This document shows, one piece after another, positions 1,359 through 9,421 of a DNA stretch of 17,511 nucleotides. Origin of the DNA: Candidatus Thalassarchaeaceae archaeon (GTDB lineage Archaea; Thermoplasmatota; Poseidoniia; Poseidoniales; Thalassarchaeaceae); assembly GCA_030747675.1 (NCBI GenBank), contig JASLKH010000045.1, positions 1 to 17,511 of the forward strand, read 5' to 3'. The position numbers were made by a program, and so were the translations under genes. The notes beneath the pieces are model-generated. The model had not been told where the DNA came from. It made no database searches and worked only from the letters and a program-made list of their open reading frames with translations. Positions within the stretch are counted from its first letter, which is position 1. Every line of letters begins with the position of its first letter.

Positions 1359-4300
1359 TTAATGTTCCAATTCGGCGTCGGGAGTCCCTTCATCGAACAA
1401 GGAGTCCCACGCAGGTTCTGCAATCTCTTTCTCTGAGCCAGAAGGTAAGGCGTCTGAAGCCATCTCTTGCTCAACAATAAGGGTGTGATCATCAGTAATA
1501 GGGAGCTTTTCAGCATCTAATGCATCATCTAACTCTGCCCTGAGCCTCTCTAGGCGGATGCCCTGATGGGCACCAATTAGGCGTAGCATTAGTGCATATT
1601 CTGAACGTACAGCAATTTCCTCTAACTCTTCCTTAGATCTGGCTGCATTCAATTCTCTCTCGAAACTCGCTGCACGAGTATTTCGTGTTATGAATCCAAA
1701 GCTGAGCCATATGAAAAGTGGAACTCCAGCAAAAATCCCGATTAAATCCCAAGCACCTAGTCCAATCCCAGTCCCGGGAATCAATACCTCGAAGCTCGAG
1801 ACTGGCTTCTCACCAGGGTCTTTTGGATTAGTTCCTTCTCTAATCTCATCAATATCAGTCCAACCATCATTGTCGTCATCAGTGTCAGCATTGTCCCCAA
1901 CTCCATCCTCATCAAAGTCATAGCACTCCTTGTAATCTAAAGGAAAAATATCATCTCCATCCAAACAACCATCATTGTCATGGTCACCAGGACTCGCTAG
2001 TTTGGGCAATATGTCTATGTTGTCATTGTAGCCATCATTGTCATAATCGAAGAGAGAAGGATCTGGATTATTTCCGCTTTGATTGTCACCTAAACCATCG
2101 CCGTCTTGATCCAACCATTGCGTTGCATCATTAGGAAAAAGGTCGGGCAAACGTCCAGCTAAACTGTCACCATATCCATCACCATCTTCATCCACCTGCT
2201 GAGTTGGGTCGAAAGGAAAAGAATCTGCGTTGTTTCCTAACCCATCTCCGTCTGAGTCCAGCCATTCACTTGCATCATTTGGAAATGCATCTGGTTGGAA
2301 TCCTACTGACTCATCTCCATATCCATCTCCATCCGTGTCATTCCACTGACTAGCATCATTGACAAAGTCATCATCTTCATCTGCATAACCATCACGATCG
2401 CTGTCAGCCCAGCGCGCAGGGTCATTTGGAAACCAATCACCTTCTATCCCGTAGGGGTTGTCCCCGTATCCATCTCCATCATTGTCTTCCCACTGTGTTC
2501 CATCACTTGGAAATGAATCTGGATTCAAACCTGTTTCATTATCGCCATACCCATCACCGTCACGATCAGCCCATTGAGTAGGATCTGAATCGAAAGGCTC
2601 ACCTTCATCAGACCATCCATCTCCGTCTGAATCTACGCAACCAAAAACATCTGTAGTAGAATTTCCAGGTATATTTAGACACCCATCTCCAACATTTCCG
2701 TATGGGTTGTCTCCGTATCCATCTCCATCTGAATCAGTTTGTTGCGTTGCATCAGTAGGATACACATCTGCATTATCTCCAATGCCATCTCCGTCAAGGT
2801 CATTCCATTCAGTAGAATCTAACGGAAATGGGTCTCGAATATCAGGTCGCCCATCTCCATCCCCATCAGGGCAACCAGTTTCAAACTCGTAGGTCGAATT
2901 TCCTGCCTCACGGGGACAAAGGTCGAGATAATCATCGACACCATCAGCATCGTCATCAAGGTCTTCCAATGCATCCATACAGCCATCTGAATCAATGTCT
3001 GTGACAGAATCAGATATCCAACCAGTCATGCCGCTTGCACAACTGTCATTCACATCTAGTACAGCATCATTGTCATCATCATCATCTTCATCAGAATCAC
3101 GGCACCCATCACTGTCATGGTCGAACTGCCTAACCGAAAAAAAACCTGAAGCAGAATACTGGCAAGAATCATAGAGATCCAATATGTAATCATCATCATC
3201 ATCTTCATCGATAATATCAGGTATTGTGTCCCCATCATAATCAACGGAAAGTTTAGTCAAAAAAGTATCGTAATGTCCACGATTTGGAATAGAAAACGAG
3301 CCAAAATTAACCAAATTATTGTATTCTCCGGTGACATATAAGTTACCGATACTATCAATGGTAAGACCATTACCTCGATCAGAACCTTGACTACCACCAG
3401 CAAGCGCCCATTGTGCTGAACCATTAGTATCTAATTTGTACACAAAAACGTCGAGACCACCACCGGCAGGGCCGAGGACGATATTGTCAAAACTGACAGG
3501 CCCGGAATTATAGTCACCGGTTACATACGGATTACCATTCAAATCAACAGTAATTGCTACAGCATTTGTTGAACACGAACAATCCACTTGTTTTGCCCAC
3601 AACCACTCTCCAGTGGTGCTTAATTTCGCTACAAACCCGTTTTGAGTCCCTCCAGTCGAGAGAGTAGACGTTGAACTAACGCTCCAAGTGCTGTAGAAAT
3701 AGCCTGCGACAAAAATATCCCCATTTTGAGACATAGATATTGAATTCGCGACTTCGTTGCTAGTCGTATTTTCCGAAATAGTCAACCACAACCAGTTGCC
3801 ATCGTTATCCAATTTAGCAACTAAGGCATTCCTTCCTGAATCAGGCGTAAATGATTGGGATACACCTCCAATTGAAATCGAAAGTGTGGAAACGATATCA
3901 CCAACAATATACAAATTCCCGCTAGAGTCAATCGCAACATCATTGACCTTAGCTCCAAAATATTTTGTCCACTGAATAACTCCATCAGTGCTGATTTTAG
4001 AAATAAATCCTTGGCCAGAACCGTCTTGTTTATTACTTGAAACAAAGATATTTCCGTTGAAATCAATTTCAATATTTGCCGGGTTTTCGGACCCGGATGT
4101 GTGGCCACTAGTAGTTATTTGTGTGGCCCATAACCACGTGCCATTGTAATCTAACTTGGCGGCAAATGCGCAGATACAAGTAATACTTGCTTGGATGGTT
4201 ATGTTGTCAAAATCTATCACATTGTAGAAATTTCCAGTAACATATACATTCTCACCAACATCGACAGAGATACCTGTACCCAGATGCCCTGCGTGTCCAA

Positions 4301-4679
4301 ATGTTCCACTGTTCCCTGCAGATGCAGCCCAAAGGCATGTACCATTAGGGTCAAATTTAGCGACAAAAACCCACTGAACTCCATTTGTATTACTTGAAAC
4401 CGAGCAAGAACCAAATGAAATCGTCTCTCGGAAAGTACCTGTAATGAATATGTTACCATTTGATGAAATAGTGACGTCCCAACCTTGATCTTCGGCACTG
4501 GAACCACCCGACTCAGCCCACTCCCAACCCAACATTTGCCAGGTTGGAATATTGGTGCTGTTTGCGCCTACGAAGTCGGAAGTTTCACTTTTCTGAAGTT
4601 GAGAATAATCAATGGTATTTCCTGCGGACATAAGTAGTAGAATCAGAATTTGATACGCAATCAATCTCCGGCAGAGCAT
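1359..4679 (-). CDS. 1106-aa cell-surface protein: signal peptide, 7-bladed SBBP-like beta-propeller, thrombospondin type-3 (Ca-binding) repeats, single TM helix, cytoplasmic helical domain
   Basis: Hydrophobic N-terminus (LIAYQILILLLMSA). Seven (F/L)xxK(L/F)DxNGxxxW-type blades. 18 DxDxDG motifs ending in DNDGWTDIDEIREGTNPKDP. TM segment WDLIGIFAGVPLFIWLSFGFIT followed by a charged tail. Confidence 0.9.
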   Translation of the reverse strand: MLCRRLIAYQILILLLMSAGNTIDYSQLQKSETSDFVGANSTNIPTWQMLGWEWAESGGSSAEDQGWDVTISSNGNIFITGTFRETISFGSCSVSSNTNGVQWVFVAKFDPNGTCLWAASAGNSGTFGHAGHLGTGISVDVGENVYVTGNFYNVIDFDNITIQASITCICAFAAKLDYNGTWLWATQITTSGHTSGSENPANIEIDFNGNIFVSSNKQDGSGQGFISKISTDGVIQWTKYFGAKVNDVAIDSSGNLYIVGDIVSTLSISIGGVSQSFTPDSGRNALVAKLDNDGNWLWLTISENTTSNEVANSISMSQNGDIFVAGYFYSTWSVSSTSTLSTGGTQNGFVAKLSTTGEWLWAKQVDCSCSTNAVAITVDLNGNPYVTGDYNSGPVSFDNIVLGPAGGGLDVFVYKLDTNGSAQWALAGGSQGSDRGNGLTIDSIGNLYVTGEYNNLVNFGSFSIPNRGHYDTFLTKLSVDYDGDTIPDIIDEDDDDDYILDLYDSCQYSASGFFSVRQFDHDSDGCRDSDEDDDDDNDAVLDVNDSCASGMTGWISDSVTDIDSDGCMDALEDLDDDADGVDDYLDLCPREAGNSTYEFETGCPDGDGDGRPDIRDPFPLDSTEWNDLDGDGIGDNADVYPTDATQQTDSDGDGYGDNPYGNVGDGCLNIPGNSTTDVFGCVDSDGDGWSDEGEPFDSDPTQWADRDGDGYGDNETGLNPDSFPSDGTQWEDNDGDGYGDNPYGIEGDWFPNDPARWADSDRDGYADEDDDFVNDASQWNDTDGDGYGDESVGFQPDAFPNDASEWLDSDGDGLGNNADSFPFDPTQQVDEDGDGYGDSLAGRLPDLFPNDATQWLDQDGDGLGDNQSGNNPDPSLFDYDNDGYNDNIDILPKLASPGDHDNDGCLDGDDIFPLDYKECYDFDEDGVGDNADTDDDNDGWTDIDEIREGTNPKDPGEKPVSSFEVLIPGTGIGLGAWDLIGIFAGVPLFIWLSFGFITRNTRAASFERELNAARSKEELEEIAVRSEYALMLRLIGAHQGIRLERLRAELDDALDAEKLPITDDHTLIVEQEMASDALPSGSEKEIAEPAWDSLFDEGTPDAELEH
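1816..3242 (-). repeat. Thrombospondin type-3-like coding repeat array
   Basis: Recurrent ~23-aa units of the form FPxDxxQWxDxDGDGYGDN. The first units carry Cys pairs (DSC...DGC, DLC...TGC). The DNA repeats are degenerate and in frame. Confidence 0.85.
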
Positions 4680-4734: not shown

Positions 4735-5187
4735 TCACCTTAGTTGCCATGAAGCCCAAGACTTTGGAGTTTCTCGAACATGCATGGCCACAAGCCGCAA
4801 TTGATTTCCATATGTGCTTTGAATATGGGGGTCGACCTGTTCAAAGGCCCATTTGGCAAGGTTCTCGGCTGTTGGAATAAAGTCCACAACCACCGTTCGA
4901 TGATTAGGGCCCATAACATCCAATGCTGTTCGCGCATTTTCATCTCCTGAATAAACGACAAATGCATGATCAACCACATCATGGACATGTTCTTTGAGAA
5001 TGGCAGAAACATCACTGAAATCGATTAACATGCCTTCATCAGACACACCTTCAACATCGACCACATCGCCCTCAATCTCAGCCTCCCATCGGTAGCGGTG
5101 CCCGTGTAGATGGCAGCACTTGCTCTTGTGGTTGGGTACTCTATGCCCCGTATCAGTTTCAATCCAGCGTCGTATTCTTGTGGTCAT
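4735..5187 (-). CDS. queD: 6-carboxy-5,6,7,8-tetrahydropterin synthase QueD
   Basis: TGH...KCCHLHGHRY (Zn His ligands and catalytic Cys), DF, DHAF, PTAENLA and ETP motifs. ATGA overlap with the queC stop and AGGAG SD. Confidence 0.93.
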   Translation of the reverse strand: MTTRIRRWIETDTGHRVPNHKSKCCHLHGHRYRWEAEIEGDVVDVEGVSDEGMLIDFSDVSAILKEHVHDVVDHAFVVYSGDENARTALDVMGPNHRTVVVDFIPTAENLAKWAFEQVDPHIQSTYGNQLRLVAMHVRETPKSWASWQLR

Positions 5188-5957
5188 ATTCTCATCTCCT
5201 GTTCAACTTTTAGCGCATTGGCAAGCACAGATTCCCATGATTCAACATATCTCACAGGGTCCTTGCGACCAATTGCATGAAAAGCCAAAATCCGCTCTAC
5301 ATCCGCTCCACTGCGGCCCGATGAACGTCCTTCCGAATCTGGATTGTAGGATGTGTTCGTATTGGCAAATACTGTATTGAAATCAAGATTGAGTGTGGAC
5401 AGTGCATCCTCAGCATCTCGTAGAATACCCTCCTTGTCTCCGTGAATATATGGAAGGTGAAAAGAGACTTTTTCACTATCCCAATTACCAACCTCAAATG
5501 CGTGTGAAATCGCTTCATAGAATTCGGGTCTACAATCTGGATAGATGGCATGGTCACCACTGTGAACTCCTAGTGCAATCACAACATTAGTCTCTTCACG
5601 TAGCGCGACTGAAAGAGCATATCCATAGAGGATTGATGCAAATATGGCATTACGATTCGGCACTACTGTCTGTTTCATCTGTTCCTCTTCATAATGCCCT
5701 TCAGGTACATCGTAACCATCTGTAGTGAGGGCCGAATGGAAAATACCCATGGCTGAACTGAGGTCTGCAATCCTGTGTTCAACTTCAATTCCGTTTGATG
5801 CCAAGTAAGCAATATTCGCCTTTGCACGTTCCAACTCAATACTGTGCTTTTGACCATAATTGTAGGACAAGCAACTGACAGTGTAACCATCCGCAAGCAG
5901 TCGCATCAATAGCCCTGTGCTGTCCATACCACCTGAAAGCGCCATCACTGCCCGCAT
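5184..5957 (-). CDS. queC: 7-cyano-7-deazaguanine (preQ0) synthase QueC, variant lacking the C-terminal Zn cysteines
   Basis: SGGMDS PP-loop, YGQKH, VVPNRNAIF, GVH and YPDCRPEF motifs. Start moved to ATG 5957 (TGATG overlap with the queE stop), giving 257 aa. Confidence 0.92.
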   Translation of the reverse strand: MRAVMALSGGMDSTGLLMRLLADGYTVSCLSYNYGQKHSIELERAKANIAYLASNGIEVEHRIADLSSAMGIFHSALTTDGYDVPEGHYEEEQMKQTVVPNRNAIFASILYGYALSVALREETNVVIALGVHSGDHAIYPDCRPEFYEAISHAFEVGNWDSEKVSFHLPYIHGDKEGILRDAEDALSTLNLDFNTVFANTNTSYNPDSEGRSSGRSGADVERILAFHAIGRKDPVRYVESWESVLANALKVEQEMRI

Positions 5958-6556
5958 CAGAGCACCCCCATCCATTTATGCGTCTGTAAGCTCAATCTCC
6001 AACCAGGACTTTCTTTGACAATCTTTTCAGTGATCTGAAACGACTTACCATTTTCTTCAACGGAGTTAGAATCAATGTAGCACGGTTGGATGAAGTGATG
6101 ATCGAATCCTTTTTTCAGGTCATCATACATGTCTAAATCTTGACCACAGTAAACAACTTTCAATTCATTTCCATTGCGTTGCTTGATTGACGCTTTGGGA
6201 TACAACTGATCCTTTGGCGAGACACAAATCCAATCGATAATGGGGTCAACTAAAATTGTCCCATTGGTCTCAATTGAAAGATTAATATCATGTTTTTTGA
6301 GTTCTCCTCCAATGGTTTCCAAATCTTGCATCGCTGGCTCACCACCTGTGAAAATCACACGATCACAATTGTAGGAAAGGACTTCTTTAACAATAGAATC
6401 TAATGTTCTTTCTTCATATGTTAAGAAGTCAGTATCACACCATTCACAGCGTAGGTTACAATTACCAAATCGAATGAAAATGTGGGGTATTCCTGAATGA
6501 AAGCCTTCGCCCTGAACTGAATGAAAAATCTCGACAACAGGGTACATCTGGGACAT
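5957..6556 (-). CDS. queE: 7-carboxy-7-deazaguanine synthase QueE (radical SAM)
   Basis: EIFHSVQGEG, RFGNCNLRCEWCDT (CxxxCxxC), FTGGEP, IETNG, VSPK, IQP and WRLSLQTHK motifs. Confidence 0.95.
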   Translation of the reverse strand: MSQMYPVVEIFHSVQGEGFHSGIPHIFIRFGNCNLRCEWCDTDFLTYEERTLDSIVKEVLSYNCDRVIFTGGEPAMQDLETIGGELKKHDINLSIETNGTILVDPIIDWICVSPKDQLYPKASIKQRNGNELKVVYCGQDLDMYDDLKKGFDHHFIQPCYIDSNSVEENGKSFQITEKIVKESPGWRLSLQTHKWMGVL

Positions 6557-6565
6557 ATAATCATC

Positions 6566-7135
6566 TCAAAGTGGATTCGTTCGAATGAGTTGCATTAGTT
6601 CAGAACGAGCCTCTGCCTTGTCGAAGAATACTCCACGCATTGCTGAAGTCGTCATAATTGCGTTTTGTTTCTTTACTCCACGGCATTGCATACATCCATG
6701 CGATGCTTCGATAATAACAGCGCATCCAAGTGGTTGTAAATGTTCTTCCAAGTCATCTGCAACATTTTTCGTAATTCGTTCTTGATTCTGCAATCTGTGG
6801 GAATGCAACTCGACAATTCGTGCTAATTTACTGATACCAACAATCCTTTCAGTAGGGATGTATGCAACATGTGCACGTCCCCTAAATGGTTGCAAGTGAT
6901 GCTCACAGGTACTGTGGAACTCAACATCTCTGAGTAGTACAATACCATCATAACCTTCTCCATTGAATGTAGATTCAAGGACTTCAGCAGACGATTGGTG
7001 ATATCCAGCGAATATTTCATCCCATGACTTAATGACACGTTTTGGAGTATCTACAAGCCCTTCTCTTCCAGTATCTTCGCCTAAATAATCGAGTAAAGTT
7101 CGCACGGCACTTTCTGCTTCATCTTTACTAACCAT
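6566..7135 (-). CDS. folE: GTP cyclohydrolase I, type IA (FolE)
   Basis: REGLVDTPKRV, STCEHHLQPF, GISKLARIV, RLQNQER and HGCMQCRGV motifs. GGTGA SD 4 nt upstream. Confidence 0.95.
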   Translation of the reverse strand: MVSKDEAESAVRTLLDYLGEDTGREGLVDTPKRVIKSWDEIFAGYHQSSAEVLESTFNGEGYDGIVLLRDVEFHSTCEHHLQPFRGRAHVAYIPTERIVGISKLARIVELHSHRLQNQERITKNVADDLEEHLQPLGCAVIIEASHGCMQCRGVKKQNAIMTTSAMRGVFFDKAEARSELMQLIRTNPL

Positions 7136-7309
7136 TTATTCACCACCAATGCGTCCATGACGGGCATCAATCATGTCCAGTTGATCGAGCATTTTCCGGC
7201 AAGCAGTCCTGATTGCATCAGCTACGCTGACAAACTTTCCACCGTCACCAACATGGTGCTTGAGGTCGTCCAGTAATTCCTGTGGTATATCCAAACTTAC
7301 TTTGGGCAT
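7136..7309 (-). CDS. 57-aa ribbon-helix-helix (CopG/Arc/MetJ-type) transcriptional regulator
   Basis: Not in the ORF track. MPKVSLDIPQELLDDLKHHVGDGGKFVSVADAIRTACRKMLDQLDMIDARHGRIGGE*: beta-strand KVSLDI, helix A, G-x-F-x-S turn, helix B (ADAIRTA). Its TAA directly abuts the folE ATG. Confidence 0.88.
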   Translation of the reverse strand: MPKVSLDIPQELLDDLKHHVGDGGKFVSVADAIRTACRKMLDQLDMIDARHGRIGGE

Positions 7310-7330
7310 AATTCTGGGCCAATCTACACA

Positions 7331-7367
7331 GTTATCAATATTACTCCAGTAATACTGGGGTATTACG
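7331..7367 (-). promoter_or_regulatory. Promoter of the RHH-folE-queECD operon with three phased palindromic boxes (candidate RHH operator)
   Basis: TATA-like TTGATAAC begins 29 nt upstream of ATG 7309. Plus-strand boxes AATATTACT (7337-45), AGTAATACT (7348-56) and GGTATTACG (7359-67) repeat at 11 bp. Confidence 0.65.
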
Positions 7368-8613
7368 AAAGGGATTCAACAAGATCTTCGCGGTTGAATT
7401 GCTTAGAAGCCCACAAAATAGCCCCTATGGCATAAATTAGCGATGAGGAGAGCCATAAAGCAACGTGCAAGGGGTCATGGAATCCCATGAGTGATTCACG
7501 CATTGCCAAAGTTACATTGAATATTGGCAGTAAGAACCACCAGAACTCAATGCCCTCAAGGTTGACAAATTGTGCAAACATGGTTGGTCCAATGAAGACC
7601 AATATCATTGGTCCAAGAATACTACCGGCCTCTTTCACGCTGTGAGCTCGTACAGCTATTGCTAGTTCAACAGCGACGACGAAAATTGCGAAGAGTAGAA
7701 CGCTAAGGAGTAGTAGTATTGCACTTGTCAGAGAAATAGTTGGCGCCCCAAGAACATCTCCCGCAAGGAAGGCAATTGCGAACAAAAGACCCGCCATATT
7801 TGCAAGAACACTAGTGCTAGCAACAACTGCTACAGCAAGCCATTTCCCAAATAGCAAATCAGCTCTTGCAACAGGTGTGCAGAGCAGAGCTTCCATTGTC
7901 CCCCTTTCTCTTTCACCAGCAGTAAGATCGATGGAAGGCTGTATTGCTGCTGAAGCAGTCCAAAGTGCAATGACTAGTGGTATGAACATTGCAAGGCCCA
8001 TAGCGGTCTGTTCACCCTTGCTAGCAAGGTTTGCATCATCTTGATCTCCATCCCAGTGTATGGGGTCGAAGACTTCACCATAGGTTAGATTCTGTTCATC
8101 GAGAGTATTGTTGATTACATATTGTTCCCATGTTAGGATACCATCCAAGGTGCGACCTCGAGCTTCTCTAGATAACTCGCTAGTTGAATCCATTAGAATA
8201 GCATAATCATACGATATGGAGGCATTAGTATCTGTTTCTCTCAACCGTAATATGCAATACAAATCCCCATCTTCAATACCACTTTGTAACCGGTCAACAT
8301 CGTCCCCTGGTATCGAAAGTGTGCCATTGACAACCAAGGGTACTGCTGTGATAACCAAATTCCGATCAGACAATAGTTGATTCAATTGAGCAGGAATCTC
8401 TCCGTCTAATTGAATTTCGATAGCCAATTCATGCTCTGCTAATTCAGCGGCTTCTCCTTGTAAAAACAAGGGTAGAGCGATAAATATCACAGGGAATATC
8501 ATGATTGGAACAAGGACCATTGCCAGCACGGTTCTCCAATCTCTGACAAAATCAACAAGCTCTTTCTTGCATACTTCAGCGACACGTGAGACTCTAAGTC
8601 CAAATTCACTCAT
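7363..8613 (-). CDS. natB: ABC-2 type exporter permease, NatB-like
   Basis: KKELVDFVRDWRT N-terminus, large extracytoplasmic loop, GERERGTMEALLCTP and GKWLA motifs, several TM helices. Start moved to ATG 8613 (GGTGA SD, 8-nt overlap with natA). Confidence 0.8.
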   Translation of the reverse strand: MSEFGLRVSRVAEVCKKELVDFVRDWRTVLAMVLVPIMIFPVIFIALPLFLQGEAAELAEHELAIEIQLDGEIPAQLNQLLSDRNLVITAVPLVVNGTLSIPGDDVDRLQSGIEDGDLYCILRLRETDTNASISYDYAILMDSTSELSREARGRTLDGILTWEQYVINNTLDEQNLTYGEVFDPIHWDGDQDDANLASKGEQTAMGLAMFIPLVIALWTASAAIQPSIDLTAGERERGTMEALLCTPVARADLLFGKWLAVAVVASTSVLANMAGLLFAIAFLAGDVLGAPTISLTSAILLLLSVLLFAIFVVAVELAIAVRAHSVKEAGSILGPMILVFIGPTMFAQFVNLEGIEFWWFLLPIFNVTLAMRESLMGFHDPLHVALWLSSSLIYAIGAILWASKQFNREDLVESLS

Positions 8614-9421
8614 TTGAATCACCCTTCCGTGTGAACATCTTACGCCATGCCTTTTCCATCCTTCCTTCAGTCTCAGTTTCATTCGAGCGCGATTCATCTT
8701 GTGTTAGTGAAACATATGCATCTTCTAGAGAATCAGTGCTAGTGGATTCCATTAGAGATTTTGGGGTCCCATTCGCCCGAATAGTACCATTGTGGATAAT
8801 TACAATTCGATCACATACCTGCTGTGCCTCAGCAAGGTGGTGAGTGCTGTAAATTACAGTGCCACCTTCGTCCCCTAATTTCCTGACAAGTTTGCGAACC
8901 ATTCTGGCACTAGTCACATCTAGTCCACCAGTGGGTTCGTCTAGGAGGAGAATTGGAGGGCCGTGCGCCAATGCCCTAATGAGGGCCGTTTTTTGGCGCA
9001 TACCACGACTGAAACCTCTTGTTGCACGATGTAAATCATCGTCAAAATTCAGAAGTTTTGCGAACCTTAGAGCCCGCGCCCATGAGTTGTCATCATCAAC
9101 GCCATTCAATCGACTGTGATAGCGAATATTTTCCCAAGCAGTCAATCTTGAATATAATCCTGTAGACTCTGGAACAACACCAATTTCGCCACGCATTTTG
9201 TGCACATCCACTTCTTTTTGGGATATGGATCCAAAAACGCGCCCATCACTTGGATGATATAATCCGCATAATAGGCGCAAAAGAGTTGTTTTACCAGCTC
9301 CATTCCCACCAACAAGACCGACAACTTCCCCGGAATAAAACTCTACACTAACATTGTCTAATGCAACGACATCCTTGAAATTCTTCGTAACATTAGCAAC
9401 AGTTAGCAAAGAATCTGACAT
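8606..9421 (-). CDS. natA: ABC exporter ATP-binding protein, NatA-like
   Basis: Walker A GGNGAGKTT, signature FSRGMRQK, Walker B LLLDEPT, H-loop STH. Confidence 0.85.
   Translation of the reverse strand: MSDSLLTVANVTKNFKDVVALDNVSVEFYSGEVVGLVGGNGAGKTTLLRLLCGLYHPSDGRVFGSISQKEVDVHKMRGEIGVVPESTGLYSRLTAWENIRYHSRLNGVDDDNSWARALRFAKLLNFDDDLHRATRGFSRGMRQKTALIRALAHGPPILLLDEPTGGLDVTSARMVRKLVRKLGDEGGTVIYSTHHLAEAQQVCDRIVIIHNGTIRANGTPKSLMESTSTDSLEDAYVSLTQDESRSNETETEGRMEKAWRKMFTRKGDSNE

Follow-up and report, generated by a model that had tools for sequence, protein, structure and literature searches.

The nearest named archaeal regulators with which the present locus can be compared are two small ribbon-helix-helix (RHH) proteins. 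aCcr1, the cell-cycle RHH protein of Sulfolobales, to whose clade SIRV2 gp21 belongs, is a single-domain protein of about 58 aa. Its gene lies apart from its numerous targets, among which are cdvA and further genes of cell division. Its binding site, the aCcr1-box, was reported as a palindromic 9-bp sequence, A(T/G)G(A)TA(G)A(T/G)TACN (PMC9976878), read here as AGTAATACN, and also as AGTATTA with the seed GTATTA, of which two copies were needed for full binding according to EMSA and mutagenesis (PMC9976892). Binding of aCcr1 to its box is established by EMSA, mutagenesis and ChIP-seq, and the protein represses from between TATA and start codon (PMC9976878, PMC9976892). CdrS of haloarchaeal cell division is encoded as the first gene of an operon together with its partner (cdrS-ftsZ2) and reads a symmetric motif (PMC7439475, PMC8406309); it is a global activator with about 18 sites, its motifs lie at -47 to -110, and it activates ftsZ1 (PMC8406309).

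In bacteria, P22 Arc, Mnt, CopG of pMV158 and omega of pSM19035 use a beta-ribbon to read short (pseudo)palindromic subsites, and cooperative binding lines up their dimers along a single DNA face at a spacing of roughly one turn. They autoregulate a promoter that drives downstream genes as well (for CopG, PMC2724298). MetJ (sensing SAM) and NikR (sensing nickel) are RHH repressors placed on tandem or inverted short boxes at metabolic or transport genes. The supply of 7-deazaguanines is controlled in bacteria by preQ1 riboswitches, which govern queCDEF and the transporter gene yhhQ/queT in cis, and YhhQ of E. coli, a member of the Vut_1/COG1738 family, is involved in preQ0 transport (PMC5372724). 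Full-text literature searches, of incomplete coverage, found no work in which archaeosine, preQ0, queC or YhhQ is connected with a protein of the RHH or CopG type, nor any that names RHH together with Poseidoniales; the control of preQ0 supply in archaea appears to be undescribed.

We analysed a stretch of 17,511 nucleotides from a Candidatus Thalassarchaeaceae archaeon (hereafter the window, meaning this whole stretch). On its minus strand an operon that makes preQ0 begins with the gene of a 57-aa RHH protein and is preceded by three phased boxes, which very probably are the binding site of that protein, as judged from the comparisons below. The genes concerned are the following.

Positions 7136 to 7309, minus strand: gene of the 57-aa RHH protein that is proposed to bind the boxes, at the head of the operon
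Positions 6566 to 7135, minus strand: folE, GTP cyclohydrolase I (E = 1.5e-69), its ATG abutting the RHH stop codon
Positions 5957 to 6556, minus strand: queE, radical SAM enzyme
Positions 5184 to 5975, minus strand: queC, QueC-family match (E = 1.8e-41)
Positions 4735 to 5187, minus strand: queD, PTPS family
Positions 7363 to 8697, minus strand: ABC-2 permease gene, upstream of the RHH gene

Directly downstream of queD and on the same strand (1359-4679) lies the gene of a 1106-aa protein that contains SBBP beta-propeller repeats as well as one weak match to a bacterial TSP3 repeat; this protein is probably secreted or exposed at the surface and has probably nothing to do with the preQ0 operon. 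No yhhQ gene was found in the window's assembly, which is 78% complete. A type II toxin-antitoxin module was considered for the RHH gene and rejected because no toxin gene follows it: the next gene is folE in all 58 Poseidoniales loci compared and yhhQ in Halobacteria.

The operator region lies in the 53-bp gap between the stop codon of the ABC-2 permease and the ATG of the RHH gene on the minus strand, and the permease stop TAA (7365-7363) falls within box 1. Its elements, numbered with the A of the RHH-gene ATG as +1, are as follows.

Positions 7359 to 7367, minus strand: box 1, distal unit, c-GTAATAC-c, at -57 to -51 from the ATG
Positions 7348 to 7356, minus strand: box 2, central unit, A-GTATTAC-T, a perfect 9-bp palindrome at -46 to -40
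Positions 7337 to 7345, minus strand: box 3, proximal unit, A-GTAATAT-T, at -35 to -29
Positions 7331 to 7338, minus strand: TATA-like TTGATAAC, its TGATAA occupying -28 to -23 relative to the ATG

Read along the minus strand, the order is c-GTAATAC-c, cc, A-GTATTAC-T, gg, A-GTAATAT-T, TGATAAC, 21 nt and the ATG at 7309, and the cores (GTAATAC at 7366-7360, GTATTAC at 7355-7349 and GTAATAT at 7344-7338) start exactly 11 bp apart. The plus-strand cores listed at 11-bp steps in the initial annotation (ATATTAC at 7338, GTAATAC at 7349 and GTATTAC at 7360) are confirmed in the sequence, and the overlapping inverted repeats that it named are present as well. It had also placed the proximal box over the BRE position and the edge of the TATA-like element, and this holds, with box 3 covering the BRE position and touching the TATA-like element. 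A possible weak fourth box (7371-7377, GAATCCC on the minus strand and GAATCAC in congeners) lies 11 bp upstream of box 1, in the last codons of the ABC-2 permease, where its conservation may reflect the C-terminus of that protein.

The TGATAA of the window is a weak TATA-like element. Because no Shine-Dalgarno sequence is present between it and the RHH-gene ATG, a leaderless transcript is implied, and the geometry implies a leaderless archaeal promoter with a correspondingly placed, predicted transcription start. A crude positional analysis of promoters across the window's genome, aimed at the local TATA/BRE consensus and at the CGAAY element of the initial annotation, gave no more than a faint rise in A+T at -28 to -25 and no clear BRE; it lends no support to a second role, as a BRE, for the CGAA that many box-3 variants contain.

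The RHH protein was found in 57 of 61 related genomes, which cover 19 genera and three families, at 65-91% identity, and promoters were compared across 58 Poseidoniales RHH-folE loci, whose genomes are related and do not constitute independent samples. The folE gene is directly downstream on the same strand in every one of the 58, whereas an ABC permease gene is upstream in only 33; the three-box operator is kept in the 25 loci that have another upstream gene. Conservation of the motif and of its 11-bp phase in orthologous promoters had been set beforehand as a test of the operator proposal, and both were found: the best three-box arrangement is spaced 11+11 bp in 55 of 58 promoters, and when 49 spacing combinations (8 to 14 bp, no penalty) competed freely, 11/11 won in 46.7 of 58 loci. 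A TATA-like TTATAT, TTGATA or TTAATA follows the boxes about 28-23 nt before the start codon in the 58 orthologous promoters, and in essentially all of them the proximal box lies over the BRE position and against the TATA box.

Alignment of 49 distinct, well-registered sites defined the unit as a 9-bp palindrome, R-GTAWTAC-Y, plus two unconstrained bases, with 0.8-1.6 bits at the box core positions and 0.06-0.23 bits at the two spacer positions. Conservation is highest in the central box, whose core positions carry 1.4-1.6 bits each. Since among the Poseidoniales orthologues N-GAATAC is the usual form of the proximal box and GTAWTCG a frequent form of the distal one, the whole 29 bp form one palindrome centred on box 2 in many lineages. 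In the window the proximal box reads GTAATAT where congeners have TGAATAC, and 2 bp have been lost between box 3 and the TATA-like element relative to congeners, with the 11-bp phase among the boxes intact.

Single copies of GTAWTAC mean little: the window holds four against 1.1 expected, and shuffled sequences also reached four (3 of 200 shuffles). The copies at 4180 and 4387, outside the operator, lie in coding region and fit chance, in keeping with the rough estimate in the initial annotation of a few isolated copies per window. The phased pattern behaves differently. With up to 2 mismatches, the two-box pattern has two overlapping matches in the window, both at this site, against 0.12 expected from shuffles, and a search of all 1.68 Mb of the assembly (78% complete) for exact GTAWTAC pairs spaced by 11 bp returned that of the RHH-folE promoter alone; exact pairs at any other spacing from 7 to 23 bp are absent from the 1.68 Mb. 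A three-box matrix made from all orthologous sites gave 37.9 for the window site and 10.5 for the next unrelated position. To avoid circularity, a matrix was also built from 27 sites of other genera without those of the window's genus; it again ranked the window site at the top, with 32.1 against 12.9 for the best unrelated match among 3.36 million positions. The scan for other phased copies that had been suggested thus left the RHH-folE promoter as the only holder of a strong operator.

Four near-complete relatives gave the same picture, in that overlapping double matches of the pair pattern occur only at the RHH-folE promoter and the remaining pair-pattern matches are at the level of a reversed-pattern control. 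Because these other matches are no commoner than the control, we read the regulon as a single operator per genome; further targets of the window's organism could lie in the unassembled part of its genome. A cell-division regulon (cdvA, ftsZ) was looked for and not found, the only strong operator in the window's genome and the four relatives being that of the RHH-folE promoter.

The 57-aa product resembles known RHH proteins in its predicted fold. An AF2 model based on a 20-sequence alignment reached a mean pLDDT of 87 and consists of extended residues 1-9, a helix at 10-17, a loop at 18-28 and a second helix at 29-51, which is the strand-helix-loop-helix topology of the RHH fold. The alternating residues K3-V4-S5-L6-D7-I8 would fit a strand with one polar and one hydrophobic face. 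Exhaustive structure alignment against 48,161 chains returned 13 matches with Z of at least 5, all of them RHH proteins, the best at Z 6.1 with an rmsd of 1.5 A over 48 residues; values of Z 5-6 are modest for 57 residues and within the range of common arrangements, and the match list is homogeneous. Antitoxins, NikR, PutA with operator DNA and TraM are included at this level, and Omega, Arc, AmrZ, ArtA and SvtR appear at Z 4-5. A Foldseek search of the PDB with the model gave no match at E 0.001 or better, and its top rows were the RHH domains of NikR and ParD, with E above 1. A two-copy homodimer prediction scored 0.38 against a mark of 0.42.

At the sequence level, the protein has no Pfam match at 0.01; against RHH_1 it obtained E = 0.071 and 13.5 bits, below the 20.5 cut-off, and once thresholds were relaxed, 8 of 20 members of its family matched RHH_1 (best E 1.1e-4). 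The best match of a PDB sequence-profile search was the RHH protein ORF56 of pRN1, at a weak E of 0.14. NCBI and JGI name close relatives from Candidatus Thalassarchaeaceae as CopG-family or Arc/MetJ-type regulators. Clustering at 50% identity resolves this compact family into 111 clusters; one of the representative matches, a repeat protein of 587 aa, was discarded as a low-complexity artefact. Outside the predicted DNA-reading strand, the family-specific invariant residues lie in an H19-V-G21 loop and a D48-x-R-H-G52-R tail; H19, G21, D48 and G52 together with the RHGR tail are candidates for an effector or partner site.

Public gene calls frequently miss the true form of this protein. Many give 65, 79 or 81 aa through a false upstream start, and the false N-terminal extension runs across the operator. 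We favour the 53-58 aa form because of the conserved MPK/VPK start and the spacing to the TATA element. The gene thus illustrates a systematic annotation problem, being either below common size cut-offs or called at 65-81 aa.

CdrS (NF058555) was the best-scoring named family, with E = 6e-6 and 26.1 bits against a cut-off of 100 for the window's protein and E = 5e-9 for a relative. The aCcr1 model (NF053762) did not match the 57-aa protein and gave E values of 9e-6 to 5e-3 (16.6-25.5 bits, cut-off 60) for its halobacterial relatives. As all these scores are far below the cut-offs, we regard the proteins as a distinct RHH family and not as CdrS or aCcr1. Profile alignment (hhalign) with SIRV2 gp21 gave 72% probability and E = 3e-5 over 39 columns. 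The DNA site provides a further connection: the R-GTAWTAC-Y unit of the 49 sites, which was derived without prior knowledge of the aCcr1-box, matches in sequence the box of this nearest characterised archaeal RHH clade. Since the derived unit equals the aCcr1-box, the view that an RHH protein of this lineage reads the boxes is supported. The candidate RHH operator proposed in the initial annotation is supported by the conserved motif, the RHH-like model of the 57-aa ORF, the aCcr1-box match and the place of the proximal box against the TATA-like element.

Within the phylum, strong matches to the RHH family are confined to Poseidoniales: two same-class genomes outside this order had none, and the other Thermoplasmatota sampled had weak generic RHH matches. 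More distant members (42-60% identity) are halobacterial and are encoded directly upstream of a Vut_1/COG1738 gene. Scanning species-representative genomes with a halobacterial alignment yielded at least 567 loci, of which 80 were kept; in 73 of them the next gene downstream of the RHH gene, in the same orientation, is yhhQ, and Pfam assigned no family to the ORFs downstream of the RHH gene in the 7 without it. The pattern TATTC-N6-GAATA (up to 2 mismatches) occurs in 45 of 82 halobacterial upstream regions, as against 1.4% of control windows from the same loci, and equals GTATTC and GAATAC boxes 11 bp apart, sometimes as direct repeats. [quoted passage not shown] A non-halobacterial RHH-yhhQ locus carries three phased boxes, ATATTCC-tgga-GTATTAC-tggg-GCAATAT, in nearly the arrangement of the window.

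A subset of 12 halobacterial loci (L067, L078, L081, L090, L097, L107, L115, L116, L122, L128, L133 and L144) has the operator about 70-97 nt before the RHH ATG, followed at once by a conserved YATG(A/C)GA and then by a leader of 50-80 nt with a Shine-Dalgarno sequence. A promoter of another architecture is suggested by this layout, or else a tiny upstream ORF beginning right after the operator.

The halobacterial regulon can apparently include preQ0 synthesis in trans, as seen at one of six queC loci examined. The queD promoter of Haladaptatus pallidirubidus (L160:3408-3440) reads TTAAG-TATTC-tcctga-TAATC-7 nt-ATG, and this operator of a queD-queE-queC cluster occupies the same promoter position as the RHH-yhhQ operator of that genome. 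As no RHH gene adjoins it, the factor would act there in trans. A loose search with TATTC-N6-GAATA in five halobacterial genomes returned 21-164 matches per strand against 7-45 for the reversed control and is too unspecific to define the regulon. Since both the Poseidoniales folE-que loci and the halobacterial yhhQ loci carry the boxes, the RHH gene and its phased boxes travel together across two archaeal lineages with a cargo that changes and is always preQ0-related. The patchy distribution of the family in Poseidoniales and Halobacteria would fit gene transfer between the two groups.

Taken together, we think it fairly probable that the boxes form the autoregulatory operator, probably a repressive one, of a dedicated regulator of 7-deazaguanine (preQ0) supply. 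Each 9-bp unit would take one RHH dimer, with its two-stranded beta-ribbon in the major groove, and with a spacing of 11 bp as many as three dimers would sit on the same helix face and could bind cooperatively. A dimer on the proximal box, over the BRE position and against the TATA box, would hinder TFB/TBP, so that the operon including the RHH gene itself would be repressed in a negative autoregulatory loop. The regulator would then be dedicated to preQ0, the 7-deazaguanine precursor of archaeosine. Repression is proposed because of this placement of the proximal box; in Halobacteria it is the natural reading, since the operator lies between TATA and start codon as for aCcr1. The sign is less secure in Poseidoniales than in Halobacteria because the boxes, at -57 to -29, overlap the range from which CdrS is reported to activate.

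The same operator and protein might instead activate the Poseidoniales operon, with RHH recruiting TBP/TFB from just upstream of the TATA element. The centre of box 2 near -43 within the -57 to -29 span, the precedent of the related CdrS acting from -47 to -110 (PMC8406309) and a weak TGATAA that might need help would suit such a role. We nevertheless consider it unlikely, given that a proximal box on the BRE position and touching the TATA element is kept in essentially all orthologues, that the halobacterial operator between TATA and ATG has the position of a repressor, as with aCcr1 (PMC9976878), and that an autoregulated activator with a single target would make a bistable positive loop, which is odd for a housekeeping precursor of tRNA modification. 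That the operator is real and is bound by another transcription factor, leaving RHH with a different role, is quite improbable. The Haladaptatus queDEC operator without an adjacent RHH gene could be taken in its favour, but the RHH gene is the one gene that always adjoins the motif in two archaeal lineages whose cargo differs, the motif is identical with the box proven for the nearest RHH clade (PMC9976892), and the 57-aa protein is the only CdrS/aCcr1-like match in the assembled genome (78% complete), with no second such gene found. Lastly, it is very improbable that the inverted repeats act in RNA, be it at the end of the ABC transporter mRNA (terminator or 3'-end hairpin) or in the manner of a riboswitch: the predicted minimum-free-energy fold allows GUAAUAC to pair with GUAUUAC and the site follows an ABC permease gene in genus-level relatives, but the fold is no better than that of shuffled sequence (z -0.69), a search for terminator-like sites found none, the central base is the same in boxes 1 and 2 at 15 of 49 sites, where the two are not complementary, the boxes are kept in the 25 of 58 loci without an ABC gene upstream, the leaderless promoter leaves them outside the operon's own transcript, and Rfam gave no match, the preQ1 aptamer included, over 7100-7500 at E up to 1.

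Returning to the autorepressor, we offer tentatively, as a possibility that we do not favour strongly, that the RHH protein itself senses preQ0 or another 7-deazaguanine and would thereby be the protein counterpart of the preQ1 riboswitch, binding its phased boxes only together with the product of the pathway as corepressor. Product-bound RHH would shut off synthesis in Poseidoniales and, in Halobacteria, salvage through yhhQ and in some species queDEC, and a ligand site might be formed by the conserved loop and tail described above.

Measured against the known systems, the RHH protein of the window shares with aCcr1 its single-domain build and a remote sequence similarity; it differs in having one target per genome, its own preQ0 operon, and its family is marked by three phased boxes, a longer loop between helices A and B (HVGDxxKFV) and a conserved C-terminal ID-RHGR tail. 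It shares with CdrS the small size, the place at the head of an operon and a symmetric (here candidate) motif, yet it belongs to a separate family, which is widespread in Halobacteria, where CdrS was described. The proposed reading of short subsites by dimers in phase, with autoregulation, is like that of Arc, Mnt, CopG and omega, whereas these act at sigma-70 promoters of plasmids and phages and the present site lies at an archaeal TATA/BRE promoter of a chromosomal metabolic operon, with no family membership between them at the sequence level. The NikR RHH domain is among both the fold and the profile matches; MetJ and NikR, however, have extra structural elements or a separate sensor domain, while the window's protein, with 57 residues, has only the conserved loop and tail to offer as a possible effector site. 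With preQ1 riboswitches (classes I-III) the RHH family shares the same two types of cargo, which is a functional analogy only, as those switches are RNA and the proposed regulator here is a protein.

What is known, then, is the RHH autorepressor with helically phased boxes, and what is new is the target pathway, the distribution over two lineages and the three-box architecture. The RHH family offers a candidate protein switch for a pathway that bacteria control by preQ1 riboswitches placed before the synthesis genes and yhhQ. A recognition code equal to that of the aCcr1-box would appear to serve a second time here, in a metabolic regulon of a distant RHH family. With a 57-aa protein and a sharply defined operator that accompany both types of cargo in two large archaeal groups, the family provides a testable regulator-operator pair.
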